Assembly (NCBI GenBank): GCA_041660565.1
Contig: JBAZWC010000001.1
Coordinates: forward strand, 238,481-302,480
Length of the DNA stretch: 64,000 bases
Origin: Patescibacteria group bacterium
Lineage (GTDB): Bacteria; Patescibacteriota; UBA1384; CAJBMM01
Direction of reading: 5' to 3'
Positions 5,843 to 60,530 of the stretch are shown one piece after another. The notes under the pieces were generated by a model. That model made no database searches, had not been told where the DNA came from, and saw only the letters and a list, made by a program, of their open reading frames with translations. The position numbers and the translations under genes were made by a program. Within the stretch, counting starts at the first letter, position 1; each line of letters begins with the position of its first letter.

Positions 5843-5918
5843 TGGTGGACCTTAGGAGATTCGAACTCCTGACCTCTTCCATGCCATGGAAGCGCTCTAC
5901 CAGCTAAGCTAAAGGCCC
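5843..5918 (-). tRNA. tRNA-Ala (anticodon GGC)
   Basis: Reverse complement GGGCCTTTAGCTTAGCTGGTAGAGCGCTTCCATGGCATGGAAGAGGTCAGGAGTTCGAATCTCCTAAGGTCCACCA: 7-bp acceptor stem with G3:U70, anticodon loop AUGGCAU, GTTCGAATC T-loop, encoded CCA. Confidence 0.9.
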
Positions 5919-5997
5919 ACTAACATTATTATACACAAAAAAGCATGAATTACCAGATTATTTTGATATAAATCTTTGATCCAGCACGGAATGACGA

Positions 5998-19236: not shown

Positions 19237-19312
19237 GTCATTCCGGGCTTGACCCGGAATCTATATACAAAGTCTTTTATAGACTGGATTCCCGCCTTCG
19301 CGGGAATGACAG
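19237..19312. repeat. two adjacent intergenic palindromic elements (type A GTCATTCCGGGCTTGACCCGGAATCTATATA; type B ATTCCCGCcttcGCGGGAATGACA)
   Basis: perfect 8-bp stems; copies of both types recur across the window (see findings). Confidence 0.75.
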
Positions 19313-23503: not shown

Positions 23504-23537
23504 CTATATAGATTCCGGATCAAGCCCGGAATGACAG
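23504..23537. repeat. palindromic element type A (CTATATAGATTCCGGatcaagCCCGGAATGACA)
   Basis: inverted-orientation copy of the 19237 element, directly downstream of the map stop. Confidence 0.7.
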
Positions 23538-25905: not shown

Positions 25906-25938
25906 CTAAATAGATTCCGGGTCAAGCCCGGAATGACA
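25906..25938. repeat. palindromic element type A followed by AT-rich AAATTTCAAATTGTAAATT-type motif (to ~25977)
   Basis: TAGATTCCGGGtcaagCCCGGAATGACAG between secY and the LysM gene. Confidence 0.7.
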
Positions 25939-37364: not shown

Positions 37365-39437
37365 TTACTTAACTTTACCGGAAATAATGTCTAGTTGGAT
37401 GTTAGCTGGGACTGATTCGTAATGGTCAAATTCCATCGAATATGACGCTCGGCCCTGAGACATCGATCGCAATGTGGTGGCATATCCAAACATGCTTGAA
37501 AGCGGCACGGTTGCATCGACAATTTTGGCGGTGCCACGCTCGGTCATCTGCTGAATTTGACCACGCTTGGCGTTCAAATCACCAATCACATCGCCCATAA
37601 AATCTTCCGGAGTAGTCACTTCAACCTTCATAATTGGCTCCAAAATGGTTGGATTTGCCTTTTTAACCGCATCTTGCAATGCCATTGAACCGGCAATTTT
37701 GAATGCCATTTCAGACGAGTCAACTTCGTGAAAAGTACCGTCAAATAAGGTAACGTGTAGGCCTTCAACCGGATATCCGGCAATAACGCCTTTTTCCATC
37801 GCTTCTTTAACGCCTTGCTCAACCGCCGGAATGTATTCTTTAGGAATAGCACCACCGACAATTTTATTCTCAAACTCCAGACCTTGGCCGGATTCGTTAG
37901 GTTTGACGCGCAAATAAACATGCCCGTACTGGCCACGACCACCCGACTGACGGATAAACTTGCCTTCTTGCTCTACTTCGCTGCGTACGGTCTCTTTGTA
38001 GGCCACCTGAGGCTTACCAGAGGTTACCTCTACCTTAAACTCGCGGCGCATTCTATCTACAATAATTTCCAAATGCAGCTCGCCCATTCCGGACAAAATT
38101 GTCTGGCCGGTTTCTTGGTTAGATTTAACTCTTAATGTTGGATCTTCCTCGACTAATCGAGCAATAGCCACACCCATTTTTTCTTGGTCGGCTTTGGTTT
38201 TTGGCTCAACTGCCATATCGATAACCGGCTCTGGGAAGGTTATGGATTCCAATCTAACTTGATTATCGCTGTCGCACAACGTATCACCGGTTCGAGTGGC
38301 TTTTAAGCCAACCGCAGCGGCAATATCACCGGAATAAACTTCGTTTACATCTTCGCGATGATTGGCGTGCAAACGCACAATGCGACCAATACGTTCTTTT
38401 TCACCGTTAGTAGTGTTAACCACGTATGATCCTGATTTCAAGATGCCACGATATACGCGGAAGAAAATTAATTTACCCACAAACGGATCTGCAGCAACTT
38501 TAAAAGCCAAGCCCACAAATGAACCGTTATCATCGGTTTTAACTTCAATGTCGGCATCGGTTTTAAGATCTACACCCTTAACCTGCGCAACATCATGAGG
38601 AGATGGCAAATAGGCCACCACAGCGTCTAGCAACGTTTCTACGATCACACCGCGGCCATCTCCACCCATCACCGGGTAGAAATCACCTTTAATGACGCTT
38701 TTGCGAATGGCTGTTTTTAATTCGTCGTCGGTTAGCTCTTCGCCATTTAAATATTTTTCCATCGCCGTGTCATCGGCTTCAACCGCTTTTTCTAGTAGTT
38801 CGGTACGATATTTCTCTACTTCATCTACCATACTAGACGGAATTTCGGTCTCAACCAACTCGTGATCGGTATAATCTTTATAGGTATAAGCTTTTCGCGC
38901 CACTACATCTACCACACCGTTAATGCTTTGTTCAAAGCCAATTGGCAGCTGAATTGGAAAAGTGTTTTTAGATAAGCGTTCGCGAATAGAGGCCAGTGAT
39001 TTATAGAAATCGCCGCCGGTTTGGTTAATTTTATTGATAAAGCAAATACGCGGAACGGTATATTTGTCTGCTTGACGCCAAACAGTCTCGGATTGTGGCT
39101 CTACCCCCATTTTGCCATCAAAAATGACCACTGCGCCATCTAGTACGCGCAATGATCGTTCTACCTCAACGGTAAAGTCAACGTGTCCCGGGGTGTCAAT
39201 AATGTTAATACGATGATTTTTCCAATAACAGGTGGTGGCAGCAGAGGTGATGGTAATACCGCGCTCGCGCTCTTGCTCCATCCAGTCCATGGTTGCTTCG
39301 CCTTCATGCACTTCGCCGATTTTATGCACTTTACCGGTACGATACAAAATACCTTCGGTAACAGTAGTTTTACCGGCATCAATATGGGCGATGGTGCCAA
39401 TGTTACGAGTTAATTCAATTGAAACTTCGCGTGCCAT
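37365..39437 (-). CDS. fusA: elongation factor G
   Basis: [17 protein letters not shown]; 690 aa. Confidence 0.95.
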
Positions 39438-39520
39438 TATCTCTCCTCAGGTGTTATTTACACAAAATCCCCTCTTAAGAGTAAATAATAACACACCCGT
39501 GTTCAAAAGTCAAAATGTTA

Positions 39521-39549
39521 TTGACAATTTTATAAATAGTTCTATACTT
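39521..39549 (+). promoter_or_regulatory. consensus sigma70-type promoter TTGACA-N17-TATACT
   Basis: ttgacaattttataaatagttctatact, followed by GGAGGTG RBS and the start at 39585. Confidence 0.6.
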
Positions 39550-39584
39550 ATCATCAGTACGCTACCTGACCGGAGGTGGATGAG

Positions 39585-40007
39585 ATGAGCATTATGGAGG
39601 GCAAGATCGTATGGCACCTCGATTCGAATCTGCAGACTCGTCGGATCATCTGCAGTAACCTAGAGCGATTGGGATGCATCGTAGTCGGGTTTAATAACAC
39701 CGACGAGATAATCGATCGCCTTGGCGCAATTGAAGCCAATCAGTTGCCGTCAGCGGTTATCACCGAGGTTGCCGGTACCACCGGCAAAGCCGATTTCGCA
39801 ATTCTCTCGATGTTGCGTCGAAACCAGCTTACTCAGAATGTCCCAATCCTGGTGCTGACCGAATGCACTAATGACCAAGACGTGTCCGACGGCTGGCAAC
39901 TTGGCGCTGACTGTATCTTGTCGAAGCCGTTCAACCCGATGGAGGTGTCGGCTGTCCTCAGACGGTTCTTCAAATCGCTCGAGGAGTACCCGCCCGAGCC
40001 TGTATGA
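39585..40007 (+). CDS. stand-alone receiver (REC/CheY-like) domain protein with Glu at the phospho-Asp position; GC-rich
   Basis: KIVWHLDSN (beta1 acidic pair), SAVITEVAG (beta3, D to E), PILVLTE (conserved T), GADCILSKPF (conserved K); ~57% GC vs ~40% host. Confidence 0.55.
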   Translation: MSIMEGKIVWHLDSNLQTRRIICSNLERLGCIVVGFNNTDEIIDRLGAIEANQLPSAVITEVAGTTGKADFAILSMLRRNQLTQNVPILVLTECTNDQDVSDGWQLGADCILSKPFNPMEVSAVLRRFFKSLEEYPPEPV

Positions 40008-40017
40008 CCAGCCCCAG

Positions 40018-40050
40018 CTCCGCAGACGCGCGCCGTTTGCGGAGATGTTT
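40018..40050 (+). terminator. rho-independent terminator (ctccgca...tgcggag + T tract)
   Basis: 7-bp GC stem followed by atgtttt; overlaps the -35 of the next promoter. Confidence 0.6.
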
Positions 40051-40054
40051 TATA

Positions 40055-40082
40055 TTGACAAATTACATAATAATCCTATACT
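40055..40082 (+). promoter_or_regulatory. consensus promoter TTGACA-N16-TATACT
   Basis: ttgacaaattacataataatcctatact; RBS aggggaggtaagg before ATG 40128. Confidence 0.6.
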
Positions 40083-40127
40083 GGTGTCATCTGGCTGTAG
40101 CGCACCACACAGGGGAGGTAAGGCAAA

Positions 40128-40538
40128 ATGGCCGTGAACCTTAAGGGCAAGCAAGTGCTGTATGTCGTCAACGGCGTTGATATACAATACGCCTGGATTC
40201 TCAACTACGTGACGTCTGAACTCGGCGCGGCCACGTTGCTGTCGTTTCAGGACGCGGTGAGTATGATCAATCACTCACCTGACCCCGAAAGAGTGGGGGT
40301 GGTATTCTACCTAACCGGACCGTCAGACTTCCCCGGCATGAACACGGTGCGTTACCTGGCGCAACTGGGCTACCGGGTCATTGTTATCGGGCAGTCTTCC
40401 GAGGTGATATATGGCGTGTGGGCTGGCCTTGCTGGCGCTGTCGCTTTCATCCCAACTGGACACTTGGACTGCGCCTGCGTTAAAGAAGCGATTAGGGTCG
40501 CTTTCATGACCGAGATCGCAACGCCTGTTCCGGCCTGA
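40128..40538 (+). CDS. degenerate receiver-like (CheY-fold) protein; GC-rich
   Basis: alternating beta/alpha pattern QVLYVVNG / VGVVFYLTGPSDFPGMN / RVIVIGQSSE / AVAFIPTGHL matching REC topology but with D/T/K positions substituted. Confidence 0.4.
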   Translation: MAVNLKGKQVLYVVNGVDIQYAWILNYVTSELGAATLLSFQDAVSMINHSPDPERVGVVFYLTGPSDFPGMNTVRYLAQLGYRVIVIGQSSEVIYGVWAGLAGAVAFIPTGHLDCACVKEAIRVAFMTEIATPVPA

Positions 40539-40563
40539 CCCACGCACACCCATCTCCACCTCG

Positions 40564-40600
40564 TCTCCGCACGCGCCAGTCGCCTGCGGAGATGTTTTTT
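40564..40600 (+). terminator. rho-independent terminator (tctccgca...tgcggaga + TTTTTT)
   Basis: 8-bp stem, 13-nt loop, T6 tract. Confidence 0.65.
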
Positions 40601-40601
40601 A

Positions 40602-40629
40602 TTGACAAAACGCAACATTACTCTATAAT
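40602..40629 (+). promoter_or_regulatory. perfect-consensus promoter TTGACA-N16-TATAAT
   Basis: ttgacaaaacgcaacattactctataat. Confidence 0.65.
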
Positions 40630-40694
40630 TAATGCCATCAACCGTACCTGCACAACCTAGGTCTTCCGTTCTGGACCAGAGAGGATATCGCGCG

Positions 40695-41240
40695 ATGGGG
40701 TCATTTCGGATCAGTCAAGCAGACGCCGAGGAAATGCATCACCTTCTCGAATCGCTAATCCGGCTACATGATAACAGACCGCTTCCGAATGGCGTGTCAC
40801 TGGACACTATTGTCAGACGAGCCAGATCGGTTCACGGTCGCATCGGCTGCCTGCGCAACAGGAAAAAGGCGCTGCTAAACGCGCCGATATTCTCGAACTT
40901 GATGGTGGTCGAACACCCGTTTAGCGGCCGAACGGTGGTATTGGCGGAGCGCTCCAATATGGTCTCACGCGAAACGTCGCTTGAGTCCACGTTGGACCTT
41001 GCCAATGAGATCTGCATGATCTACCGAATCCCCCTCGATCAGCTAGACTGGTACGAGCGGGATCAGCCGGTAACATCGGGTCAGACCCCCAAGCAAGCGG
41101 ACGTCCGCTGCTTCTCGGTCATCTTCCAGATTGTGGACGGGCGGCTGGATAGTTTCTCCCGTGTTGCGCTATCCAGCGACGAGCTCGCAACTCGCACCCT
41201 GGGCCTGGAGTTTGCCAAGCGGCTCTCGCCAGTGTTCTAG
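40695..41240 (+). CDS. GC-rich hypothetical protein (181 aa from internal Met; the ORF-track start at 40632 lies inside the promoter and was rejected)
   Basis: gagagga RBS then ATG at 40695; no recognisable domain. Confidence 0.4.
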   Translation: MGSFRISQADAEEMHHLLESLIRLHDNRPLPNGVSLDTIVRRARSVHGRIGCLRNRKKALLNAPIFSNLMVVEHPFSGRTVVLAERSNMVSRETSLESTLDLANEICMIYRIPLDQLDWYERDQPVTSGQTPKQADVRCFSVIFQIVDGRLDSFSRVALSSDELATRTLGLEFAKRLSPVF

Positions 41241-41287
41241 GACACATCAACCATATCGTGCCGAGACGATCACCACCAACCAACAAC

Positions 41288-41330
41288 CCTCCGCGACGGG
41301 CAACCGTTTCGGAGGGTATTTTATTTATAT
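41288..41330 (+). terminator. rho-independent terminator (ccctccg...cggaggg + tattttattt)
   Basis: third member of the same terminator family at the end of the GC-rich island. Confidence 0.6.
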
Positions 41331-41357
41331 AGATTCCGGATCTAGTCCGGAATGACA
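41324..41357. repeat. palindromic element type A (ATAGATTCCGGAtctagTCCGGAATGACAC)
   Basis: marks the right border of the GC-rich island. Confidence 0.7.
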
Positions 41358-41424
41358 CAAAAAAAGTCCGTGTTACGCTCGAACAAAAAATCCGTCACCC
41401 GTCATCTGTTTTCCATTATCCGCT

Positions 41425-42069
41425 TCACTGTTTTTCGGGGCAGATTGGGGTTAGCCCGGCGGCAACTCGAGTAGCTTGCGTGGCCGCATCATACTGACAG
41501 CCAATTGTATAATAATGTGTATTCACGTAGCTATCAGCACTTAAAACATACGTTTCGCGTGCGAGATCATGGCAGCCACCATTGGAATATGTTGTAGCGC
41601 AGCTAACCGAACTATTATTTATCTCTAGTACTGACAAAATTCCATAGGCCATACTGTTGTTGGCGTTCGTTTTTTGAGTATAAACCCAATAATCATAGAC
41701 ATCGTTGGGATTTTTAGTGGCATCATTGGCTTTTGATACCAACAAACCGCCATTACATTTTCCGATTGGGTCAGATGGCAGAGTTGACGCAAATGCGGCT
41801 AGTGCCGGTAGCAATGTGGAAGTCCAGTTACTTGGTGCGCCACCCTGTGATGCACAGGAATAAACATTAGACGCGCCAGCCCCCGGATAAATCGAGTTAG
41901 CCTGTTTATAATTAACCATATTTAGACGAAGCGTCTGCATATCGTTTTTACGAGTAGCATCACGCGCTCTTAAGCGTGCAGATTTAGCGTAATTTAAAGT
42001 CATCGCGGCCAAAATGCCAATAACCGATACGACAATTAATATCTCAATTAGATTGAATGACTTACGCAT
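41425..42069 (-). CDS. type IV pilin-like protein (prepilin N-terminal domain)
   Basis: MRKSFNLIEILIVVSVIGILAAMTL class III signal/N-methylation motif; Cys pairs in the C-terminal globular part. Confidence 0.7.
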   Translation of the reverse strand: MRKSFNLIEILIVVSVIGILAAMTLNYAKSARLRARDATRKNDMQTLRLNMVNYKQANSIYPGAGASNVYSCASQGGAPSNWTSTLLPALAAFASTLPSDPIGKCNGGLLVSKANDATKNPNDVYDYWVYTQKTNANNSMAYGILSVLEINNSSVSCATTYSNGGCHDLARETYVLSADSYVNTHYYTIGCQYDAATQATRVAAGLTPICPEKQ

Positions 42070-42160: not shown

Positions 42161-42192
42161 GTCATTCCGGGCTTGACCCGGAATCTATATAG
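42161..42192. repeat. palindromic element type A (GTCATTCCGGGCTTGACCCGGAATCTATATAG)
   Basis: identical to the 19237 copy. Confidence 0.75.
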
Positions 42193-47186: not shown

Positions 47187-50100
47187 TTATGCTTCTTCAG
47201 CAGCTGCGACAGGCTCTGACAACTCGTCATCACTGCCAATTTCGGTTACTAATTTATCCACTGCTTCTTCGTCTTCAATCATGCCGCCAACCGGCTCGTT
47301 TAAGATTTCTTCTAAGGTTTCACCAGTGTCAGAGACCGGCGCCATCGCCTTTTTGGCCTCTTCCAAATGAATTTCAAAGTTTTTGGCGTCTTCATCGCTT
47401 AACAACTGAACCGACAAGCCTAAGCTTTGCAACTCTTTAACCAACACGTTAAACGATTCCGGAATAGATGGTTTTTGAATTGGATCGCCCTTAATAATGG
47501 CTTCGTAAACTTTGCTTCTACCCACGGTGTCATCGGATTTAACCGTCAACATTTCTTGCAAAGTATGAGCGGCACCATAAGCCTCTAATGCCCAAACTTC
47601 CATTTCTCCGAATCGCTGGCCACCAAACTGGGCTTTTCCACCCAATGGCTGCTGGGTGATCATGGAGTATGGTCCAACTGAACGAGCGTGCATCTTGTCA
47701 TCAACCAAGTGAGACAATTTCATGATGTAGTTAATACCGGTGGTAGTAGTGTGATCAAAACCGGCGCCGCTGCGGCCATCAAACAACTGAATTTTGCCGG
47801 TCTTAGGCAATTTGGCTTTCTCTAAGTAAGTTTGAATCTGCTCCCAACTTAAACCTTCAAATACCGGGCTGGCTACTTTGATGTTTAAGGTGTTGGCGGC
47901 CCAGCCTAGGTGAGTCTCTAAAATCTGACCCAAGTTCATACGGGAAACCACACCCAGCGGGTTAAGAATGATGTCTACCGGCGTGCCATCTGGCATATAC
48001 GGCATATCTTCTACCGGCAAAATGGTAGAAATAACACCTTTGTTACCGTGACGTCCGGCTAATTTATCACCAACCGCAATTTTACGTAACTGAGCCACCG
48101 AGATTTCTACTTGCTGATAAACACCGGCTGGCAACTCATCACCCTGATCTTTATTAAATAATTTAATCTCAACCACTTTACCGCGTTCGCCGTGAGGCAA
48201 GCGCAAAGAGGCGTCTCGGACGTCTTTGGCTTTTTCACCAAAGATGGCGCGTAACAATTTTTCTTCGGCAGACAACTCGGTCTCACCTTTAGGCGTAATT
48301 TTACCCACCAAAATGTCGCCGGTCTCTACCTCTGCACCAATGCGCACAATACCGCTTTCGTCTAAGTTAGACAGCGCTTCTTCGGACACGTTTGGGATAT
48401 CTTGAGTGATTACTTCTGGCCCCAATTTAGTGTCTCGTACTTCACAAACGTATTTTTCGATGTGAATAGAGGTGAAACGATCTCGATGTAACATGCGCTC
48501 GGAAATAATGATAGCATCTTCAAAGTTACCACCACCCCAGCTCATAAACGCCACCAAAACGTTCTGACCCAAGGCCAGCTCGCCTTTATCGGTGGCAGAG
48601 CTATCGGCAATCACCTGACCCTTAACCACGTGTTGCTCAACATCTACAATTGGACGTTGGTTAATACAAGTGGCCTGGTTTGATCGCACAAATTTCTGTA
48701 ATTTATAAACTTTTTTCTCTTTAGTATCGTCTTCCAACACGGTAATGTGATGGGCGGTTGATTCCAAAACCGTACCAGACTCATCGGCAATAATAATCTG
48801 ACCGGAGTCGTAAGCGGCCTCGTACTCCATACCAGTACCCACCACCGGAGATTGCGGCACAATAACCGGCACAGCTTGACGTTGCATGTTTGCACCCATC
48901 AACGCGCGCGCGGCTTCATCGTGTTCAATGAACGGGATCAAGGAAGCCGAAATACCCAAAATCTGTTTCGGCGAAACATCAATATATTGAATTTTCTTAG
49001 TATCTTCAACCGCCGGCTCACCAAATCTACGCACCAAAGTACGAACTTCTGTAAAGTAGCCGTCTTTGTCAATTGGAGCTGAGGCTGGAGCAATGATGTG
49101 ACGCTCTTCGGTGGCGGCATCTAAATAATCAATTTTATCACTAACCTTGGTCTTGCCATCAATCTGCTCAACTTTGCGGTAAGGTGATTCGATAAAACCG
49201 TAATCATTCACCCGTCCGTAAGAAGCCAAATAGCCCACCAACCCAATGTTCGGGCCTTCTGGGGTTTCAATTGGGCAAATGCGGCCGTAATGAGTAGGAT
49301 GAACGTCTCGAACTTCGAAACCGGCGCGCTCACGAGAAAGTCCACCCGGACCGGTAGCGGAAAGCGTGCGCTTGTTACCAAGCTCGGCTAGCGGGTTAGT
49401 CTGGCTCATAAACTGTGATAACTGAGATGAGGCAAAGAACTCTTGCAACACCGCCATAATTGGGCGCGAGTTAACCAACTGCGCCGGCGTAACGGTGGCA
49501 ATGTCTGAGACGCTCATGCGATCTTTAACAATACGTTCCATACGCAACAAACCAACGCGAATTTTAGCCTGCACCAATTCACCCACGGCGCGAACGCGGC
49601 GGTTGGCTAAGTGATCGATATCATCTTTCTTAGCAGTTGGATCGTTATTTAATCTAATTACTTCTTTAACGATGGCGATAAAATCATCCATCCGCAAAAT
49701 TCGATTCTCAACTACGTCTTTAACCTGCAAATTCAAACGAATGTTCATGCGATAACGGCCAACGCGCCCAAGATCGTAGCGTTTGTTATTAAAGAACAAC
49801 ATATTCAAGAACGAACGTGCGCCTTCTGGGTTAGCCAAGTCTCCCGGGCGAATCTTTTTATAAACTTCTACCACGGCCTGATCTTCGCTTTTAGTCACGT
49901 CTTTTTCAAGTGTGGCGTTAATGTACTGGTGATCTGGATTAGTATCTACATCTTTAAACAAATCACGAATAGCATCGTCGTTAGCGTAACCAAAAGCACG
50001 CAAGAACGTAGTGACATTAATGCGGCGTTTGCGATCAATTTTAACCGTAATCACGTCTTTAGCGTTAGTTTCAACTTCTAACCATGCGCCGCGGTTAGGA

Positions 50101-50579
50101 ATAATTTTAGCGCCAAATAAGTTGCGGCCGGGCACTTCATCGTTAGCAAAAAGTACGCCATATGAGCGTACAATCTGGGTAACAACCACACGCTCAATAC
50201 CGTTAATAATAAAGGTGCCGCGTTTGGTCATCAACGGGAAATCACCCAAAAAGACATCGCTCTCTTTAATTTCACCGGTTTCTTTGTTCAACAAGCTAGC
50301 GCGAGCCTTAAATGGGGCTTTGTAAGTTAAGTTTTTGTCGCGCGCCATTTCTTCGGTAATGCGCGATTTGTCTAGGGTTGGAGAGCTAAAAGTAAGCGAC
50401 AAGCTTTTGCCGGTAAAATCTTCTATTGGATTAATCTCGTCTAAAAGCTCTTGAACACCTTGCTCAAACAACCATTTATATGAGTTCGTCTGAATTTCGA
50501 TAAGGTTTGGTAACTTGGTGGGGTTTGGATTACCGGATAAATAGATTCTTTCTGGCTTAGTGCTTGCACTTTTACTCAT
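47187..50579 (-). CDS. rpoB: DNA-directed RNA polymerase beta subunit
   Basis: 1130 aa; conserved beta-subunit blocks; agggag RBS before ATG 50579. Confidence 0.95.
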   Translation of the reverse strand: MSKSASTKPERIYLSGNPNPTKLPNLIEIQTNSYKWLFEQGVQELLDEINPIEDFTGKSLSLTFSSPTLDKSRITEEMARDKNLTYKAPFKARASLLNKETGEIKESDVFLGDFPLMTKRGTFIINGIERVVVTQIVRSYGVLFANDEVPGRNLFGAKIIPNRGAWLEVETNAKDVITVKIDRKRRINVTTFLRAFGYANDDAIRDLFKDVDTNPDHQYINATLEKDVTKSEDQAVVEVYKKIRPGDLANPEGARSFLNMLFFNNKRYDLGRVGRYRMNIRLNLQVKDVVENRILRMDDFIAIVKEVIRLNNDPTAKKDDIDHLANRRVRAVGELVQAKIRVGLLRMERIVKDRMSVSDIATVTPAQLVNSRPIMAVLQEFFASSQLSQFMSQTNPLAELGNKRTLSATGPGGLSRERAGFEVRDVHPTHYGRICPIETPEGPNIGLVGYLASYGRVNDYGFIESPYRKVEQIDGKTKVSDKIDYLDAATEERHIIAPASAPIDKDGYFTEVRTLVRRFGEPAVEDTKKIQYIDVSPKQILGISASLIPFIEHDEAARALMGANMQRQAVPVIVPQSPVVGTGMEYEAAYDSGQIIIADESGTVLESTAHHITVLEDDTKEKKVYKLQKFVRSNQATCINQRPIVDVEQHVVKGQVIADSSATDKGELALGQNVLVAFMSWGGGNFEDAIIISERMLHRDRFTSIHIEKYVCEVRDTKLGPEVITQDIPNVSEEALSNLDESGIVRIGAEVETGDILVGKITPKGETELSAEEKLLRAIFGEKAKDVRDASLRLPHGERGKVVEIKLFNKDQGDELPAGVYQQVEISVAQLRKIAVGDKLAGRHGNKGVISTILPVEDMPYMPDGTPVDIILNPLGVVSRMNLGQILETHLGWAANTLNIKVASPVFEGLSWEQIQTYLEKAKLPKTGKIQLFDGRSGAGFDHTTTTGINYIMKLSHLVDDKMHARSVGPYSMITQQPLGGKAQFGGQRFGEMEVWALEAYGAAHTLQEMLTVKSDDTVGRSKVYEAIIKGDPIQKPSIPESFNVLVKELQSLGLSVQLLSDEDAKNFEIHLEEAKKAMAPVSDTGETLEEILNEPVGGMIEDEEAVDKLVTEIGSDDELSEPVAAAEEA

Positions 50580-51035
50580 CACATTTCTCCCTTTGTTATC
50601 GAAACTATATTATTTATATATATTAGATTTGGGTGATAATACGCATCACAGTTTGTCATTTCGACTCCCTCCGGGCGTAGTCTACGGGCAGAGCCTCGAG
50701 CGTTGTCTCGAGGGTGGAGAAATCTTCATAAAGAGTTCTCCTCGGTTCCGTTCTCTGTCCTCTGTCATCTGTTTTCCGAATTTACACAAAACGGCCGGTT
50801 CTGCTTGGATAGCAGAAACAGCCTGCTTAATGTCAGGACTTAAGCCGAAATTATTACCATGAGGCTCCGACGTTTGGCTAATCTATATTTAGGCTATCAA
50901 AAGTTTGATAGCTTGTCAACCCCCTGGCAACGAGGGGTTGCCAAAATTTTAAATTTTAAATTTTAAATTTGAAATTGGTCGAATTTTTGTTTTTAGATAG
51001 TCTTTCACCCGGATTGTCATTCCGGGCTCGACCCG

Positions 51036-51120
51036 GAATCTATATAAATAGAACATCCATACGCAGTTCAAATTATAAATTTCAAAATGTAAATTCACCC
51101 ACCCGCCTTGCTCTTTACTC
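51036..51120. repeat. composite element: type A palindrome + AACATCCATACGCAGT + AT-rich AAATTTCAAAATGTAAATT
   Basis: near-identical composite at 52266-52348. Confidence 0.7.
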
Positions 51121-51190
51121 TTATATATGTTATTATATTGGCATACTGAGCGCCATTGCTCAGAATTCGGTTCACAATAAGGAGTCCGTG

Positions 51191-51481
51191 ATGCGACACG
51201 CTCAAGGCGGGAAAATCCGAGGCAAGCACACGAGCATCATCGACGAGGCCGAGTCGCTGATTAAGGCGGTGGACGGCCTGGCGTGCGTTACTGGAGTGAG
51301 TCTTGGATTCATCCAGCACACCAAAGGGCGCCCAGTCCCGAAGAACCTCAAGTTCCTTGACGTGGATGCCGGGCTGCAACTCACCGTTCGCGCCCCAAAG
51401 ACGGTTCAGACGCTGATTGTCTATACCAGCGACCGAACCGGCACGGCAAAAGCGCTTTGCGAGGCCTTCTACAAGAAGTGA
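51191..51481 (+). CDS. GC-rich small hypothetical protein (96 aa)
   Basis: taaggag RBS + ATG 51191; ~58% GC; ends in a terminator shared with the next cassette. Confidence 0.4.
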   Translation: MRHAQGGKIRGKHTSIIDEAESLIKAVDGLACVTGVSLGFIQHTKGRPVPKNLKFLDVDAGLQLTVRAPKTVQTLIVYTSDRTGTAKALCEAFYKK

Positions 51482-51505
51482 CCTCGCGCCCATCACCATC
51501 CACCA

Positions 51506-51548
51506 GGCCGGCAGTCCACCACGGACTCCCGGCCTAATTCTTTGCTTA
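51506..51548 (+). terminator. rho-independent terminator ggccggcagtccaccacggactcccggcc + taattctttgc
   Basis: nested GC hairpin + T-rich tail; duplicated verbatim at 52046-52090. Confidence 0.6.
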
Positions 51549-51556
51549 TTTATCTT

Positions 51557-51598
51557 GTCATTCCGGTCCGCCGGCTGGCGGATAATCCGGAATCTACA
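51557..51598. repeat. palindromic element type A variant with extended loop (GTCATTCCGGtccgccggctggcggataaTCCGGAATCTACATA)
   Basis: same stem as type A; loop forms its own hairpin. Confidence 0.65.
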
Positions 51599-51696
51599 TA
51601 AAAAGAATCATTCCAAATGTTTTAAAATTAAAAATTAAAAATTTAAAATTTTGCTTATGTCTATCCCCCATCACAATATCGAGTCCAACATTCGTC

Positions 51697-51725
51697 TTGA
51701 CATGATTATATTATTGTAGTATATC
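51697..51725 (+). promoter_or_regulatory. promoter TTGACA-N17-TATATC
   Basis: cttgacatgattatattattgtagtatatc upstream of RBS aaaggg and ATG 51759. Confidence 0.5.
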
Positions 51726-51758
51726 TAAATTATCCTGCAAGTCGAAAGGGTTAGTCCG

Positions 51759-51947
51759 ATGCCAGAGAGAGACACGCAGTCCCGCAGTGGCAGTATCGAA
51801 GTGACAGTGGGCTCCGGCCGCGATGGCGGCACCGGCCAGTCGACGACCGACATGCTGATCATCGATCACGACAGCCGCGACGGTAGCCACGACCACGTGG
51901 TCATCAGCGAGTCCGGCGAGACGCTGCACGACACCACCCGCAAGTAG
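51759..51947 (+). CDS. GC-rich small acidic low-complexity protein (62 aa), hypothetical
   Basis: ~63% GC ORF with its own promoter, RBS and the duplicated terminator. Confidence 0.3.
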   Translation: MPERDTQSRSGSIEVTVGSGRDGGTGQSTTDMLIIDHDSRDGSHDHVVISESGETLHDTTRK

Positions 51948-52045
51948 GAAGTGCACGGAGGGCTAACGCTCACACCGACACTTCCTGGGCAGATACCTCT
52001 ATCGGAGGCGTCTGCCTGTAATCATAGAACAGGGCCTCACCAAAG

Positions 52046-52090
52046 GCCGGCAGTCCACCACGGACTCCCGGCCTAATTCTTTGCCAATTT
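52046..52090 (+). terminator. second copy of the ggccggcagtccaccacggactcccggcc terminator
   Basis: identical 29-nt hairpin + taattctttgcc. Confidence 0.6.
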
Positions 52091-52102
52091 TTGTTTTCCC
52101 CT

Positions 52103-52348
52103 GTCATTCCGGATTTAATCCGGAATCTATTCCTATGGTGTCATTCCCGCGAAGGTGGGAATCCAGCCTATAAAAAACCGTCTTTCTTCTGGATCCCCGA
52201 ATAAAATGTCGGGGATGACAATTTAGTCAAAACCGTGCTCAAAAGAGAACCGTCCCCTATCCTTTGTCATTCCGGGCTCGACCTGGAATCTATATAGATA
52301 AAACTTCCATACACAGTAAAAATTAAAAAATTTAAAATTTAAAATTCC
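52103..52348. repeat. cluster of palindromic elements: type A (52103-52132), type B (52139-52175), type D ATCCCCGaataaaatgtCGGGGATGACA (52192-52224), composite type A + AT-rich (52266-52348)
   Basis: each has a perfect 7-8 bp inverted repeat; type B is near-identical to 19276-19312. Confidence 0.7.
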
Positions 52349-53094
52349 ACGGTCTTAACCGCCTCGGTGTAACCACAATAATCACAACTTGGATTGGCTT
52401 CTGGAATACTATCACTATTCAAACACTCATGTGCTTTAAGCAACGTGCCATCTATCCAACTGTCACTGCCCTTATACGCAATTAGCGTAATATCAAACTC
52501 TAACTTGGCGTCAAACGCGCTTTTGTCTGTGCGCCCGTTGCAATACACAAAATAGCCGGTATCAGAAACCTTGTAACCATTTTGCCTCAAGAGCCACTGA
52601 TACACCTCCATCTGCCGCTTATACCCGTCTTGCCACTCTTTATTAAGCTCGGTTATTTCCTCGGCTTTAGAGGTAGATTTATAATCCACCACAATATATT
52701 CACCTTGTGAGTTCTGCCACAAATCGTCAATTGCACCAAAGACTAAAAAGTTGGTTTTGGGATGCAAAAACTGCACGCCGGTAAAGTTATGCCGCCATTT
52801 TTCTAAATCTTCATGCGCCACCGGCACCGCATCTACTCCGTATTTCTGAATCAGCGGATGTTTGCTACCTTTAGCACGGTAGATATCGAATTCGAGTTTT
52901 AACAGGTGGTCAACGGCGGAGTTTAGGGCAAATGGGAATCCGGGTGGTCTGCCAACCCCTAGCCGGCGGTCTAGGTAGAAACACCGCGGGCATTCGGTAA
53001 ATAGGTCAATTTTGCTGCGGGATAACTTAAACGGCTCTGACGAATTAGGATCGTACAAGCCTTTTACTCGTTGTGGGGTGTAATATTCGTACAT
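52339..53094 (-). CDS. PD-(D/E)xK nuclease, Cas4/RecB-like with FeS-type cysteines
   Basis: GAIDDLW ... IVVDYKST (D...D-x-K); Cys at C35-x2-C38 and C225...C238-x2-C241; 4 nt after the upstream gene. Confidence 0.6.
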   Translation of the reverse strand: MYEYYTPQRVKGLYDPNSSEPFKLSRSKIDLFTECPRCFYLDRRLGVGRPPGFPFALNSAVDHLLKLEFDIYRAKGSKHPLIQKYGVDAVPVAHEDLEKWRHNFTGVQFLHPKTNFLVFGAIDDLWQNSQGEYIVVDYKSTSKAEEITELNKEWQDGYKRQMEVYQWLLRQNGYKVSDTGYFVYCNGRTDKSAFDAKLEFDITLIAYKGSDSWIDGTLLKAHECLNSDSIPEANPSCDYCGYTEAVKTVEF

Positions 53095-53097
53095 GAT

Positions 53098-55914
53098 TTA
53101 TAATTCTTTCTTAAAATCTAATTTCCTGGCTCTCTGCCGCAACGCCTCTTTACCACCCTCGAGCACATCAATTATCCTGTCTCTGATTTCTATATTTTCA
53201 ATAGAACCGGTTAGGTAATCAAAGTTATATTTTCCCGCGCTATGTCTTGAATTACTTGATACCAACACCTCTTCTGAATCAGCACAAACAACCAAACTTC
53301 CGTTATGAGAAACAATAATAATTTGCCTATCCTCCTTTTCGGACTTTATAAAGTTGACAAGGTCAGTCGCTACGCCACCAACGTCTAAGTCATCTTCAGG
53401 CTGATCTATTAATATAGGATACTTTTCGTCATCAAATCTAAATACCAACTCGAGCAAGGCAATTGCTTTTTGCCCTCCTGTCATATCCTTAAAAGCCGTG
53501 TCATTCTCCTTGGTTTTTACCGAGTTAAGATAATCAATCTCGTATCGGTTCTTTATTAATTGGGAAATTACCTGTGAAACATCAGATGCGTCAACCTTGA
53601 TTTTAATCTTGTTATTCACGAGATTAACTATTACTTTCCTAAGAGTATCATTACTTAACTGAGCAGTACTCTCACCAAAGAATTGAGTAATATCTGGTTC
53701 CTGCTTTAAGCTTGCGTCTGTGTCACGGGTGTTAATGTTTCGCTCCACGAACCTCTTTAGATCTTCGCTATTATATTCTGTGACAATATCAATATTCAGG
53801 AATGTAAATAGGTCATCAAACCGCACGGTTTCAAATACTGTTTTACGCTGATAATCATACTCTTTGTATATGTTGATTAAGGAATCGATTGCCTCTTTTT
53901 GCTGTACGTCTGATTGTTGAAGAATCTTTGTAAGTTCATCAATTTTTTTAATCGTATCCTGAAGTCCTGCTAGCTCCTTAGTCAATGTCTCGAGGGCCGT
54001 ATTTAGTTTGATTTTCTCATTGAGTGTACTAACGATCGCGCTATTCTCCTTGATAACTGTTTCGCAACTGTTAATTTCAGTTTTAATACTATCAATCTCT
54101 GCTTTTATTAGAACACTCAAACTTTCTTTTCCTTTTCTGACCAATTCATCGCGAATTAATTTCTGTCTCTCGAGTGAGAGTCTGCTAAATTCCTGGTTTG
54201 ATACATAGACTCCTGCGCCCGTCTTATCAAGAGTCTCAAGGATTGTTTTGTCCTGAGACAGCAGCAGAAGGAATTTCTGATTATCAGCAATGAGGCTCTT
54301 AGCATCCGAGTATTCTTTAATTTCCTCATCAGATATAGATGTGCTACCTGAGACCTTATATTTTTTAATTTCAACATTTTTATTTGCAATTTCTTTTTCA
54401 ATCTCAATTTTCGATCCTTGTTTTCTTATAAGAAGTGCGGTTTCGTTATTAGTAGATTTGGCTGATAGCAAGCTTTCAATTAATGCCTCTGCTTTAACTT
54501 TGTTATTTGAAGTTAACTCTTCGTAAACTTGAATCGCATTCGCAAACAATGAATGCTTTTTAAGTAATCGGGTTAAGAACTGATCCCTTTCTGCCGCTTT
54601 ATCCCCATCGTCATACGCTAAGGAACTCAAATAATTTTGGGGTATATAAAAAACGCTTTTTGGGCTGTCATTGCTACCATGATCTTCCTGCCCATCAACC
54701 CATATAACTTTCACCGAATCTAATGGATACAGATTGGCGGGCTTATCTTTTTCAGTAAATTGTGCTGGATCGACATTATGCGCGATATTTCTTAGCAACG
54801 TAGACTTCCCGCTACCGCGAACACCGATGATTGAGTTAAGATCCTGGTTAAACACAACAGTTTTGTCCTGTTGATCAGCGTTCTTGTATGTAGCTCTATC
54901 AATTATTATCCGCCCTGACTTACTATCGCCAGGATTTCTTTCCTGGATTCGTACTCTATCCTTTGGTTCCCATAAAACCTGTTTTAAACCTTCAAAACTT
55001 GTATCCGCTTTTATCCAGCAAAATAGATTATTATCTGGATTAAATAATTTTGCTTCCGTATGGGCATCGCATCCGTGAACGCAAGGTTTTAATGATCCGC
55101 ATTTACTAATAACTGTTTCCCTGTCATCGGTTTTTTCTCCCAGAAAGTATCGTCTATCTTCAGGATTGCCGGAAAAGATTGCATTAGAAATAGTATAAAT
55201 AGATTTTCTTACAGCATCGAGTTGGCTTGCAGCATCATTTTCAAATAGATCGTAATGTTTTTGTAAACCCGAAGCACCATCTACACAGGAATTACTAACT
55301 ACAATAATTACCTTCTCGCGGAAGTTGGCGTTAGCTTCATAAAGGGCATGTAATTGGCTGTGATCGACGACAAACGAATCTATCCCTTTTTTGTAAGCGG
55401 CTACATCACTTAAGTTTGAATCGATAAATTTTCCCAACCCTATAAACCCAGCTTGATTCATTTTGAACTTTCGGCCAGGCTCAGCAGCATACTCTATAGA
55501 ATTAAATAGATCGTTGTCTATATTTGCAACAAAATCAGGATTAAGTATACAGTGTATATTCACGAGCCGCCCATGATCTGTAGAGGGCATCATTCGCAAC
55601 TCGATGTTTGGTATAATAAATATTTCTTTGATCTTCACTTTTTCCTCTGGTAAGAATACAGGCTCGCCAGATTCGTTTGTTTCATGGAAACTGTCAATAT
55701 TATCGACGAACTCTTTAACCTTTTTGTAGTTATCAATATTAAAATAGTCAGTAATTCCAATTACGACGATTTCTTTTGATAACGCTTCCCTTAATAGAGT
55801 CGTGCAAAACTGGCCGAAGGATTGACTTGTAAACCTATCATTTTTAGCAGTATCTTTTGTATGAACATGTAGATCCCACCTTGCCCATATTGAACCGCGA
55901 GGATTGTTACGCAT
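53098..55914 (-). CDS. PHP-domain phosphoesterase fused to SMC/Rad50/SbcC-like ABC ATPase with long coiled coil (Ppl-like)
   Basis: N-term WDLHVHT (PHP motif); GVRGSGKSTLL Walker A; ~450-aa coiled-coil; MTGGQKA signature; PILIDQPEDDLD Walker B/D-loop; IIIVSHN H-loop. Confidence 0.7.
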   Translation of the reverse strand: MRNNPRGSIWARWDLHVHTKDTAKNDRFTSQSFGQFCTTLLREALSKEIVVIGITDYFNIDNYKKVKEFVDNIDSFHETNESGEPVFLPEEKVKIKEIFIIPNIELRMMPSTDHGRLVNIHCILNPDFVANIDNDLFNSIEYAAEPGRKFKMNQAGFIGLGKFIDSNLSDVAAYKKGIDSFVVDHSQLHALYEANANFREKVIIVVSNSCVDGASGLQKHYDLFENDAASQLDAVRKSIYTISNAIFSGNPEDRRYFLGEKTDDRETVISKCGSLKPCVHGCDAHTEAKLFNPDNNLFCWIKADTSFEGLKQVLWEPKDRVRIQERNPGDSKSGRIIIDRATYKNADQQDKTVVFNQDLNSIIGVRGSGKSTLLRNIAHNVDPAQFTEKDKPANLYPLDSVKVIWVDGQEDHGSNDSPKSVFYIPQNYLSSLAYDDGDKAAERDQFLTRLLKKHSLFANAIQVYEELTSNNKVKAEALIESLLSAKSTNNETALLIRKQGSKIEIEKEIANKNVEIKKYKVSGSTSISDEEIKEYSDAKSLIADNQKFLLLLSQDKTILETLDKTGAGVYVSNQEFSRLSLERQKLIRDELVRKGKESLSVLIKAEIDSIKTEINSCETVIKENSAIVSTLNEKIKLNTALETLTKELAGLQDTIKKIDELTKILQQSDVQQKEAIDSLINIYKEYDYQRKTVFETVRFDDLFTFLNIDIVTEYNSEDLKRFVERNINTRDTDASLKQEPDITQFFGESTAQLSNDTLRKVIVNLVNNKIKIKVDASDVSQVISQLIKNRYEIDYLNSVKTKENDTAFKDMTGGQKAIALLELVFRFDDEKYPILIDQPEDDLDVGGVATDLVNFIKSEKEDRQIIIVSHNGSLVVCADSEEVLVSSNSRHSAGKYNFDYLTGSIENIEIRDRIIDVLEGGKEALRQRARKLDFKKEL

Positions 55915-58750: not shown

Positions 58751-58753
58751 GGC

Positions 58754-60526
58754 CTAGTCGCTTTCCTCATCATTTTCTAATTCTTCCATAGCTGTTTCCT
58801 TAATTGGCAGTAAGTATTCTTTCTTGCCAAAATGACAGGCTTTCAGCACTGATTGTGGAATCTTCTTGATCGTAATTCGACTATCAATTTTTTCCGCGCC
58901 GGGCTCAAACTTCTTGGGACAAATAATCAATGATTCGCCATCGGAAAGATGGCCCACAATCTGTTGAACCATTCCGCATGTTAAGAGTTGGGTTGTGACA
59001 TAAAGGTAGTTCTTACCTTGGCCCATACCGTGTTTCCAATATTCAGTTTGGCTTGGCTGATAAGTGAAATTCATCAGCTTGCACATGGCTTTAATAAGCT
59101 TTGTATCGTTGTAATAATCGTCAATTATTGGGTTACCAAACTCATCTTTGATGATAAAACTTGGGGCTAACTCATAGAATTTGTATGCACCTCCACCTTG
59201 CCATTCTAAGGTTTTACTGATACCACCTTGATCTAGACCGCTAATGACCTTATCTAATCTTACCTTGCAGTGTGTGAATGCATGATCGCCCATTTCAATT
59301 CCAAGATATCTACGTCTCATTTTATGTGCGACAGCGCATGTTGTACCAGAGCCCAGGAAAGAATCTAGTACGATATCATCCTCATTTGTAGACATTCGTA
59401 TTATTCTCTGTAGCAGTGATTCCGGCTTTTTACCGTTTGGGAAAAGTACCCCGCCTTCTTTTGTAACATTAATCCAGCTAAAACCATCCCAGTAGGTACC
59501 AATTTTTTCCTTTTTGTATATCTTTCCTTTTAAAAGTGTTGCGGTATCTTTGAGCCAAATCACAAGAACTTTTTGTTTTCCCATAAAAATAATATCTATT
59601 TTATTATCTTTATTTCTTCCGGACTTGGGGCTATAAGAAGCAATGAACATATTATTTTCACTATCCGTAGCATCCCAAACTCTGGTTCTGATCGATGTTT
59701 GAGCATTTGTTGTGGTAATTATTTTGTCAAAATATTTTATATACACTTCATTCTCAGAAATGCCTTCAAGCTGAGCTATTTGTTTTACGCTTTTTATGTC
59801 GTAACTTTTAACTTCGGATATTACTATATCATCGCCGCTTCCGTCCTTAATGATTTTATACGGAACGACATTATCAATCTTATAAAGTACGGAGGTGTAT
59901 TTAAAACTTTTTTCGTCATCTTTCATTCGAGCAATATAACTCATCAGCTCTGTTTCCTTATAAACAGGTTCAAACGGCAAAAAAGAATTTGTTTCTTTGC
60001 AATATACTAATATATATTCAATGTTCTTCTTTAGCCTTATATCTTCACCGCCCCCACTGGCACCGGCACTAACTTTTGAATTCACCGAGATAGTATTGAT
60101 AAAGTTATTTCTTCCAAAAACTTCATCCATTAATACCCTAAGATACGGTTGCTCAACATCATCAATTTGAATAAAAATAATTCCATCTTCTTTAAGAAGC
60201 ATCCTCAATAATTCTAGCCTTGGTTTCATCAAGGATAGCCAAGTACTATGCTCTACGCTGTCATCGTAGTACTCAAATGCGTTACCGGTGTTATATGGCG
60301 GATCAATATATATACATTTTATTTTACCCTCATATTCAGGGAGTAGAGCTTTTAGTGCGAGAAGATTATCCCCGTGAATAATCATATTCTCGGTATTTGG
60401 ATCATTGGCACAATTTGAAAGCTCAGGGTTTTCTTCTAAGATTCTTGGCTCGATGTTAGCAATATCGTACTCGGGATTATTTTTCCCAATCCAGGTTAGT
60501 TCTAGTTTTTGTTTGTTGTTTGTCAT
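58754..60526 (-). CDS. beta-class N6-adenine/N4-cytosine DNA methyltransferase (Type III Mod-like)
   Basis: CIYIDPPYNTG (motif IV) N-terminal to DSFLGSGTTCAVA (motif I); IIHGDNLLALKAL. Confidence 0.8.
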   Translation of the reverse strand: MTNNKQKLELTWIGKNNPEYDIANIEPRILEENPELSNCANDPNTENMIIHGDNLLALKALLPEYEGKIKCIYIDPPYNTGNAFEYYDDSVEHSTWLSLMKPRLELLRMLLKEDGIIFIQIDDVEQPYLRVLMDEVFGRNNFINTISVNSKVSAGASGGGEDIRLKKNIEYILVYCKETNSFLPFEPVYKETELMSYIARMKDDEKSFKYTSVLYKIDNVVPYKIIKDGSGDDIVISEVKSYDIKSVKQIAQLEGISENEVYIKYFDKIITTTNAQTSIRTRVWDATDSENNMFIASYSPKSGRNKDNKIDIIFMGKQKVLVIWLKDTATLLKGKIYKKEKIGTYWDGFSWINVTKEGGVLFPNGKKPESLLQRIIRMSTNEDDIVLDSFLGSGTTCAVAHKMRRRYLGIEMGDHAFTHCKVRLDKVISGLDQGGISKTLEWQGGGAYKFYELAPSFIIKDEFGNPIIDDYYNDTKLIKAMCKLMNFTYQPSQTEYWKHGMGQGKNYLYVTTQLLTCGMVQQIVGHLSDGESLIICPKKFEPGAEKIDSRITIKKIPQSVLKACHFGKKEYLLPIKETAMEELENDEESD

Positions 60527-60530
60527 AGCT

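Follow-up and report, generated by a model that had tools for sequence, protein, structure and literature searches.

How genomes as small and streamlined as those of the Candidate Phyla Radiation (CPR; Patescibacteria) gain genes is an open question, and it is raised in concrete form by a single locus of an environmental Patescibacteria genome. The locus lies on a 516,109-nt contig of a metagenome-assembled genome (MAG) deposited at NCBI and JGI/IMG, of which a stretch of 64,000 nt, hereafter the window, was analyzed. Between ~39,514 and 41,320 of the window, in a genome of 42% GC, three plus-strand genes (the open reading frames ORF1, ORF2 and ORF3) form an islet of ~1.8 kb, which is placed in reverse orientation directly upstream of the native fusA promoter, within the rpoBC-str-S10 super-operon. 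How did three such genes come to stand in this operon, and what signals do they bring with them? The islet is probably a horizontally acquired, lineage-specific insertion, built as an array of autonomous cassettes similar to the morons and PeSL elements of phages and carried in a CPR chromosome. Horizontal transfer and genomic islands have already been documented in Patescibacteria (PMC12455944).

Composition and insertion site of the islet

The composition of the window is not uniform, and the islet is its outlier, as an earlier note on this DNA had supposed. In 300-nt windows from 39,550 to 41,350 the GC content ranges from 0.51 to 0.59, compared with 0.40–0.45 in the flanks, and among the sixty-four 1-kb segments of the window the highest GC content is found at 40,001–41,000 (0.543). 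The same note had placed the three ORFs at 55–60% GC; they are indeed GC-rich, but their values of 0.53, 0.56 and 0.57 for ORF1, ORF2 and ORF3 correspond to a range of 53–57%. The GC content of third codon positions (GC3) is 0.66–0.70 in the islet ORFs as opposed to 0.38–0.46 in ten host genes, and the tetranucleotide correlation between positions 39,601–41,400 (1.8 kb) and the whole window is −0.02, the minimum of 208 windows with a median of 0.83. The leucine codon TTA is used at 0% in the islet and 30% in host genes, the isoleucine codon ATC at 61% and 21%, respectively. Across the islet ORFs the codon positions follow the order GC3 > GC1 > GC2, which supports true coding sequence originating from a GC-richer background. 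The foreign composition of the islet is therefore supported by GC3, codon usage and tetranucleotides alike. Elsewhere in the window, a minus-strand gene at 5998–8025, encoding a 675-aa protein with immunoglobulin I-set domains, has the second most atypical composition (tetranucleotide correlation 0.53–0.56), and a segment at 3276–3625 within a hypothetical gene (3127–4026) reaches a GC content of 0.55–0.61; both are possible further examples of foreign or fast-evolving surface genes.

The three ORFs are the sole plus-strand genes within a minus-strand run of ~38 kb comprising rpoB, rpoC, rpsL, rpsG, fusA, tuf and rpsJ onward. Since a pilin-like gene lies between the islet and rpsG, the islet sits between this pilin-like gene and fusA (Table 1). 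The earlier proposal of an island splitting the str operon between fusA and rpsG thus holds with respect to the insertion, but the two genes are not its direct neighbors on both sides. Nor was the order otherwise canonical, as the rpsG-fusA link is already broken by the pilin-like gene in this clade (L203, L209). In fact, Patescibacteria often carry insertions in the str operon, and in several of them pilin-like or other genes are inserted between fusA and tuf, pilin-like genes being found there at 2726–5519 of L010 and 8204–9343 of L012.

Closer relatives were found via the 90% cluster of ribosomal protein S12, which led to the contigs L203, L204 and L209 and to gene tables without DNA. The L203 contig measures 63.6 kb at a GC content of 0.38 and encodes an EF-G that is 84% identical to the one in the window. 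In all three contigs rpoB, rpoC, rpsL and rpsG are followed by a pilin-like gene of ~200 aa and fusA, and the spacer between the latter two spans 65–71 nt and contains no island. The pilin-like genes are positional counterparts with ~31% identity (L203 10,961–11,596; L209 3388–4017). Among the gene tables, one shows a 76-nt gap, and two show an interval of 472 nt from rpsG to the next gene, with no pilin gene called. The island genes are absent from all of these syntenic relatives (L203, L204, L209 and the gene tables), and because the relatives keep the pilin-like gene and fusA adjacent without an island, the insertion can be regarded as lineage-specific. The distance from rpsG to fusA, which amounts to 2,869 nt in the window, is mostly 25–100 nt in at least 70 other genomes. 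Species-representative genomes likewise include none with the island genes; their best EF-G match (72%, GTDB) is too distant to help.

The left junction can be placed at 39,514–39,520. The fusA promoter (TTGACy, a 17-nt spacer and TGTTATWAT) is conserved in an alignment of the window, L203 and L209, where promoters of the form TTGACC-17-TGTTATATT in the pilin-fusA spacers of the two relatives align with that of the window. The stop codon of the pilin gene and the −35 element of fusA overlap in L203 and L209; next to that element in the window (39,513–39,508) comes, after 7 nt, the −35 element of the first islet promoter on the opposite strand. The right junction can be set at approximately 41,318–41,326, where the tail of the last islet terminator meets the conserved TATATAG flank of a palindromic repeat.

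Shared regulatory modules and dissimilar gene products

The signals that accompany the three genes are closely alike. The promoters P1, P2 and P3 occupy the top three ranks in a sigma70 consensus scan of 11 kb, and they account for three of the four sites in the 64 kb (both strands) that match the consensus at 11 or more of 12 positions. Near-perfect promoters had been described earlier for each gene with spacers of 16 or 17 nt; the promoters stand, with a spacer of 16 nt in all three. Each is located 30–60 nt 5' of an ATG with a ribosome-binding site, namely GGAGGTG (39,572–39,578) for ORF1, GGGGAGGT for ORF2 and AGAGGA for ORF3, so that every gene has such a site but the GGAGG type attributed to all of them does not extend to the third. 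Downstream of the genes, the hairpins T1, T2 and T3 have minimum free energies of −19.1, −21.0 and −24.4 kcal/mol (z −3.9, −5.8 and −6.2 relative to shuffles); no shuffled sequence equalled any of the three, and each hairpin is followed by a T-rich tract. On the minus strand, T3 folds at −22.5 kcal/mol (z −3.4) and is then followed by TTGTTGGTTGG, and it may therefore act as a two-way terminator.

The terminator of one cassette leads straight into the −35 element of the next (T1 into P2, T2 into P3), and the two resulting composite modules are homologous, with 75% identity over 63 nt (T1-P2, 40,018–40,080; T2-P3, 40,565–40,627). Their 25-nt core TGCGGAGATGTTTTWTATTGACAAA is found exactly twice, compared with 0.00 expected occurrences, and the core is identical at 24 of 25 positions; a repeated motif of about this length at the terminator/−35 junction had been noticed in the earlier reading and is confirmed. 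P1 retains the ATGTT-ATTGACAA portion of the module, and T3 is a variant of the CTCCGC-type hairpin seen in T1 and T2. Of the three GC-stem and T-tract terminators that the earlier note assigned to one family, T1 and T2 are homologous and T3 is such a variant. The window thus holds two full copies of the module, one partial copy (P1) and one variant (T3). The module motif has zero matches in viral contigs and metagenome contigs. ORF1, ORF2 and ORF3 are mutually dissimilar (pairwise z 0.8, 0.1 and −0.5). As far as their sequences indicate, the regulatory modules are common to the cassettes and the intervening genes are not.

Read in this way, the islet would consist of three monocistronic cassettes, each with its own near-consensus sigma70 promoter, Shine-Dalgarno site, ORF and strong intrinsic terminator. 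All three genes would be transcribed strongly and constitutively by the host RNA polymerase carrying the primary sigma factor, head-on to the operon. The predicted starts are close to 39,556, 40,090 and 40,637, and the predicted 3' ends fall within the T-tracts, near 40,050, 40,600 and 41,325. T1–T3 would insulate the cassettes from each other and from the pilin gene: T3 would halt the island transcripts ahead of this gene and may also halt opposing read-through from rpsG and the pilin gene, and fusA and tuf would still be expressed from their own conserved promoter. As portable units, regulatory modules of this kind would allow foreign ORFans to be expressed and insulated wherever they are inserted.

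The product of ORF1 matches the receiver family PF00072 at positions 9–109 of 111 (E 5.7e-7; 30.1 bits, the curated cut-off being 30.2). It also matches 87 receiver chains in the PDB, the receiver domains of PhoB being the best, as well as many response-regulator models. Glu61 aligns to residue 53 of PhoB and D13/S14 to its residues 9/10, which we take to be the wild-type phospho-acceptor aspartate and the acidic pair, respectively. ORF1 has neither the acceptor aspartate (Glu61) nor the second acidic residue (Ser14) of a receiver phosphorylation site, and retains the Thr and Lys-Pro positions ('LVLTEC' and 'LSKPF', compared with 'VMLTAR' and 'ITKPF' in PhoB). It has no output domain, and there is no histidine kinase in the window. 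No close homologue of ORF1 was found among 5.8 billion proteins. Its sequence tentatively suggests a stand-alone pseudo-receiver incapable of normal phosphorylation (Glu in place of Asp at the acceptor, Ser in place of Asp at the metal site), although confidence in this assignment is low.

For ORF2, protein searches returned no sequence relative, and no Pfam, NCBIfam, PHROG, PADLOC or PDB sequence match beyond chance was obtained. A resemblance to NDUFA9 in the PDB sequence search (E 5.5e-4) was taken as chance. A single-sequence AlphaFold model gives a fivefold beta-alpha order at low confidence (pLDDT 51.6), and in Foldseek comparisons it shows weak agreement with the receiver fold, with 2hqo and 2hqr (HP1043) among the PDB matches. 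The model contains no receiver phosphorylation or catalytic residues and points to what is probably a fully degenerate receiver-fold protein. An origin of ORF2 as a tandem duplicate of ORF1 was rejected at the sequence level (z 0.8).

ORF3 begins at 40,695 rather than at 40,632, because the ATG at the latter position lies upstream of the expected transcription start; the JGI gene call starts at the same position. No relative of ORF3 turned up among 15 billion proteins (word-indexed search, and exhaustive HMMER over 1.84 billion representatives), nor any PDB, Pfam, NCBIfam, PHROG or PADLOC match. The sole extra HMMER match, P0009, is spurious, a repeat-inflated MucBP surface protein. The AlphaFold2 (AF2) model of ORF3 is unusable (pLDDT 44.5). 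Three word-indexed protein searches covered ORF1–ORF3, and each returned the query proteins only; among phages and plasmids, ORF1 has generic receiver matches only, and ORF2 and ORF3 have no specific match. The earlier note had asked whether the best hits lie in high-GC taxa; beyond the generic receiver matches of ORF1, no homologue of any island protein and no donor was found.

Given a pseudo-receiver, a probable receiver fold and a third protein without assignment, the most likely role of the products, again at low confidence, would be that of phosphorylation-independent adaptors or decoys which act through protein-protein contacts and not in a two-component pathway. Known pseudo-receivers offer a parallel, including plant pseudo-response regulators with a Glu acceptor, HP1043 and FrzS: ORF1 shares with them the receiver signature, Thr, Lys and a Glu acceptor, and the model of ORF2 would correspond to an atypical receiver fold minus the catalytic residues. 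In contrast to atypical receivers, each of the two consists of a single domain and lacks detectable close relatives, and the window contains no kinase.

Table 1. Positions of the islet, its flanking elements, the second cassette site and the REP-like repeats in the window.
Feature	Position	Strand	Description
Native fusA promoter	39485..39513	-	TTGACT-17-TG-n-TATTAT, 10/12 with extended −10 TG; back-to-back with P1; left insertion edge
Promoter P1	39521..39548	+	TTGACA-16-TATACT, 11/12
ORF1	39585..40007	+	140 aa, WC773_01415; stand-alone CheY-like receiver domain (predicted); GC3 0.66
Terminator T1	40015..40051	+	Stem 40,018-40,044 and T-tract, 11 pairs (7 G-C); fused to P2
Promoter P2	40055..40082	+	TTGACA-16-TATACT, 11/12
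ORF2	40128..40538	+	136 aa, WC773_01420; ORFan
Terminator T2	40562..40601	+	Hairpin and T-tract; fused to P3; T1 homologue
Promoter P3	40602..40629	+	TTGACA-16-TATAAT, 12/12
ORF3	40695..41240	+	181 aa, WC773_01425; ORFan; GC3 0.70
Terminator T3	41286..41327	+	Stem 41,286-41,317 and T-rich tail; right island edge
REP-like palindrome	41326..41358	.	TATATAGATTCCGG-N7-CCGGAATGACA; adjoins island at T3; dispersed host repeat
Pilin-like gene	41425..42069	-	Prepilin N-terminal methylation motif; between rpsG and island; not part of island
Cassette A	51191..51481	+	96 aa, WC773_01455; terminator hairpin 51,505-51,535, then REP-like element
Cassette B	51698..52075	+	Promoter TTGACA-17-TATATC at 51,698; terminator module 52,044-52,074, as in cassette A
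Cassette B ORF	51,759-51,947	+	62 aa, GC3 0.86, WC773_01460
REP-like copies	19237-19261, 19287-19310, 23511-23535, 25913-25937		
REP-like copies	41332-41356, 42161-42185, 51016-51040, 51557-51594		
REP-like copies	52103-52127, 52140-52163, 52192-52219, 52266-52290		

A second cassette site and a family of dispersed palindromes

Two further GC-rich, plus-strand ORFan cassettes, A and B, lie in an ORF-poor region of 1.75 kb upstream of rpoB (50,583–52,338). Their 3' modules (51,505–51,559 and 52,044–52,098) are 91% identical over 55 nt, and the terminators within them fold with z values of −5.4 and −5.5. A REP-like element follows each of the two terminators, and four such elements are interleaved with the cassettes in direct orientation. 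Both proteins, WC773_01455 and WC773_01460, are singletons in the protein collection, and the second-site terminator has zero matches in viral contigs. In L203 the gap between obg and rpoB is just 175 nt, and no counterpart of cassettes A and B was found between these genes in the relatives examined. The presence of cassettes A and B at 51.2–52.1 kb indicates that this genome repeatedly takes up self-contained, GC-rich ORFan units, at no fewer than two sites. Judging from sequence comparison, the shared 3' or junction modules used at the two uptake sites appear to fall into two distinct families. Rfam assigns no family in the island or at 50.5–52.4 kb save a chance match below threshold. Phased A/T tracts (AAATTTTAAATTTT repeats) are present at 50,942–50,976, 51,617–51,653 and 52,318–52,346, where they precede the second-site cassettes as well as the rpoB promoter; curved DNA or a resemblance to UP elements could account for them.

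The palindromic repeat that adjoins the islet at T3 belongs to a family with the consensus TGTCATTCCGG-N7-CCGGAATCTATA and the variants ATTCCCGCGAAGGYGGGAAT and CATCCCCGA...TCGGGGATC. Nine type-A copies occur in the window, compared with 0.06 expected, and 12 copies when the two variants are included (0.01–0.06 expected). The copies sit in intergenic spacers in either orientation, and an inverted pair (41,333 and 42,164) brackets the pilin-like gene. At least 120 metagenome contigs with GC contents of 0.26–0.59 carry the element, often next to sibling hairpins, as does a single viral contig; the syntenic DNA of L203, L204, L205 and L209 lacks it.

The REP/BIME repeats of enterobacteria and the dRS3/NIME repeats of Neisseria are dispersed short palindromes. 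Like them, the family in the window comprises short, conserved, imperfect palindromes which are dispersed in intergenic spacers in both orientations and are at times clustered, and its variant ATTCCC-N8-GGGAAT has the form found in dRS3. Unlike them, it is present in Patescibacteria and many uncultured lineages, with no RAYT-type or IS110-type gene seen. From its sequence and distribution, the palindrome appears to behave as a REP-type repeat and not as part of the foreign DNA. A survey of ~1.2 Mb of other loci for GC-rich blocks beside REP-like hairpins gave a few candidates (L096, L144 and L171) but no consistent pattern. In L171 (4984–7327), an unrelated metagenome contig with a GC content of 0.42, a block of small plus-strand ORFs (5767–6957; GC3 0.57–0.59) is flanked by sigma70 promoters at 4984 (11/12) and 7300 (12/12), an arrangement that may be similar to that of the island.

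Origin of the islet and competing explanations

Hendrix and colleagues reportedly defined "morons" as extra genes in lambdoid and other phages. Such a gene forms an independent transcription unit, with a promoter ahead of it and a factor-independent terminator behind it; it differs in composition from its neighbors and stands between two genes that neighbor each other in related genomes. The islet genes resemble this arrangement in that each has its own promoter and factor-independent terminator (11/12, 11/12 and 12/12 matches; z −3.9 to −6.2), in that their composition differs from that of the flanks and in that they are located between genes which are adjacent in relatives (65–71 nt). They differ from phage morons in being part of a cellular str operon, with rpoBC, ribosomal-protein and elongation-factor genes as neighbors, and in forming three units in tandem.

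A second parallel is offered by the PeSL (promoter-early stem-loop) of T4-like phages, a conserved motif of terminator and sigma70 promoter by which the ORFans lying between its copies are shuffled (PMC2839356, PMC4122927); recombination between the copies gives rise to indels or mini-circles. Composite elements of a stem-loop terminator and a consensus sigma70 promoter are likewise present in the islet (T1-P2, 40,018–40,082; T2-P3, 40,562–40,629), and copies of its conserved motif (75% over 63 nt) flank unrelated ORFans. In contrast to PeSL, the islet lies outside a T4-like hyperplastic region, its copies number two full, one partial and one variant as opposed to ~50 per phage, and its motif is unrelated in sequence and has no match in viral collections. 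By analogy, then, the islet would work in the manner of a moron or PeSL, having the structure of both, without being a member of either class, as it lacks the phage context. Integron arrays share with it the tandem order of small, mostly ORFan genes of foreign composition with conserved structured elements between them; they differ in that the window contains no intI and every island cassette comes with a strong promoter and terminator of its own. No attC cores (RYYYAAC ... GTTRRRY) were recognized on reading T1–T3, the 51.5- and 52.05-kb modules and the REP-like element.

The foreign composition, the modular signals and the absence from syntenic relatives all agree with the acquired cassette array that the earlier note had envisaged. 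A donor of higher GC content (about 55–60%) is plausible, and the ORFan content and regulatory style suggest that it was probably a mobile element or virus. Several observations weigh against this interpretation. Searches of proteins, phage and plasmid DNA (where the island DNA has no match), viral contigs and metagenome contigs yielded neither a donor or homologue nor a second copy of the module, and a phage or mobile-element origin is therefore read from the architecture alone. No integrase, transposase or phage gene was detected in the 64 kb (Pfam scans of non-ribosomal ORFs; no informative PHROG match), and flanking direct or inverted repeats do not exceed chance, their local alignment scores falling within the range of shuffled controls, which leaves no target-site duplication or att site. 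The nearest sequenced relative is still distant (EF-G 84%), so that calling the acquisition recent draws solely on the lack of compositional amelioration. The right junction is provided by the MAG assembly only and coincides with a dispersed repeat, the expression of the island is a prediction from sequence signals, and the models of ORF2 and ORF3 are of low confidence.

The junctions also bear on whether the islet could be an artifact, either an assembly chimera or a binning contaminant in which GC-rich DNA was joined to a Patescibacteria contig at short repeats. The source is a MAG, the right end adjoins a dispersed repeat of 32 nt, and L001, an independent Logan contig of 2,090 nt (run SRR18595301), stops there. 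This contig is nevertheless 100% identical to positions 39,264–41,353 of the window and runs unbroken from within fusA across the fusA promoter and all three island genes. Because it spans the fusA junction, the island is physically joined to the fusA of this organism, and a chimera at the right junction would not change this linkage. Its end at 41,353 is the end of the palindromic dispersed repeat, where a k = 31 graph naturally breaks; further contigs of the genome in Logan are likewise short and break in many places (L082), and host genes were found in the same run. Moreover, the large k-mers used by standard metagenome assemblers exceed a repeat of 21–32 nt in length. An artifact is thus very unlikely. 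Exceedingly improbable is the engineered construct that the earlier note had also considered, that is, synthetic expression cassettes integrated beside fusA in a laboratory strain. The textbook modules of promoter, ribosome-binding site and terminator, with their repeated junctions, would fit such a design, as would proteins without natural homologues found. The DNA, however, comes from an environmental MAG present in NCBI and JGI and was reassembled independently in Logan; its codon usage is opposite to that of the host (TTA 0.00 as opposed to 0.30), its modules are merely 75% identical with differing 5' untranslated regions, and it has no marker gene, no vector, plasmid or phage match and no duplicated homology arms or flanking repeats. 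A second site with different GC-rich cassettes and another module family would likewise be unexpected in a construct.

Two explanations invoke natural processes other than the capture of foreign cassettes with their own signals. The genes could be old, native members of the lineage with an odd composition, for example structurally constrained regulators of the adjacent pilus gene. Single-domain receivers regulate type IV pili, ORF1 and ORF2 are receiver-like and the island adjoins a pilin-like gene; against this stand the absence of the island from all syntenic relatives that were examined, in which the −35 element of fusA and the pilin stop overlap, the tetranucleotide correlation of −0.02, the GC3 gap of ~0.25 and an orientation opposite to all neighbors, which together make a native origin decidedly unlikely. 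Alternatively, the cassettes could have been captured by a site-specific, hairpin-directed process, integron-like or REP/IS110-like, with the REP-like palindrome as the recombination site. A REP-like element does lie at the end of the island, a conserved terminator and such an element in direct orientation come after both cassette A and cassette B, and L203 has neither the hairpins nor the cassettes. We nonetheless regard this process as unlikely. There is no integrase or transposase in the 64 kb, the element has no attC core (RYYYAAC/GTTRRRY), and each cassette brings a promoter of its own; furthermore, the hairpin does not stand in the same orientation to the cassettes at the two sites, it occurs in spacers without a cassette (19,240; 23,512; 25,914) as well as in unrelated contigs, at least 120 of them, and GC-rich blocks near hairpins elsewhere are not consistent. 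A broader extension of the PeSL analogy is a speculative and rather unlikely one: a cellular counterpart of PeSL, in which portable modules, of terminator and promoter or of terminator and hairpin, capture GC-rich foreign ORFans and express them constitutively at several core-operon sites. As part of this doubtful proposal, DNA of a host or prey would perhaps be taken up via a competence-type pilus, and the REP-like palindromes would mark or mediate the insertion points.

The horizontally acquired cassette array thus remains the probable explanation, and what sets it apart is that ORFan cassettes in the style of morons or PeSL stand within the str operon of a CPR chromosome. The insertion point is mapped to a few bases beside a conserved promoter, the operon being the best conserved one in the genome, and three expressed-looking ORFans arrive with complete regulatory signals, which makes it an unusually clean case. 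If the module-based interpretation is true, the moron/PeSL route of gene addition would not be limited to phages, and the CPR RNA polymerase would use canonical sigma70 signals, which would provide strong promoters and terminators for genetics. Two modeled or predicted receiver-fold proteins without phosphorylation chemistry, together with one ORFan, would be candidates for new signaling adaptors. At present, the locus represents a well-documented horizontal-transfer islet rather than a new system.

The surroundings of rpoB hold a few further features. A defense-type block on the minus strand (52,339–63,470), not found at this position in L203, comprises a PD-(D/E)XK nuclease, an SMC-like ATPase, an N6/N4 DNA methylase and an SNF2 helicase, along with a ResIII helicase with a TnsA-like endonuclease domain. 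The usual linkage is L10-L7/L12-rpoBC; rplJ and rplL were found neither upstream of rpoB in the window (47,187–52,338) nor in L203, and this linkage is absent in the clade. Finally, the leaders of fusA and rpoB have the 12-mer TTTTGTGTAAAT in common (39,456–39,467 and 50,780–50,791, minus strand), and the 14-mer GTCATCTGTTTTCC occurs on the plus strand both directly downstream of the pilin gene (41,401–41,414) and in the rpoB leader beside the 12-mer (50,764–50,777). The two shared sequences may represent a common regulatory motif or the remnant of a repeat.

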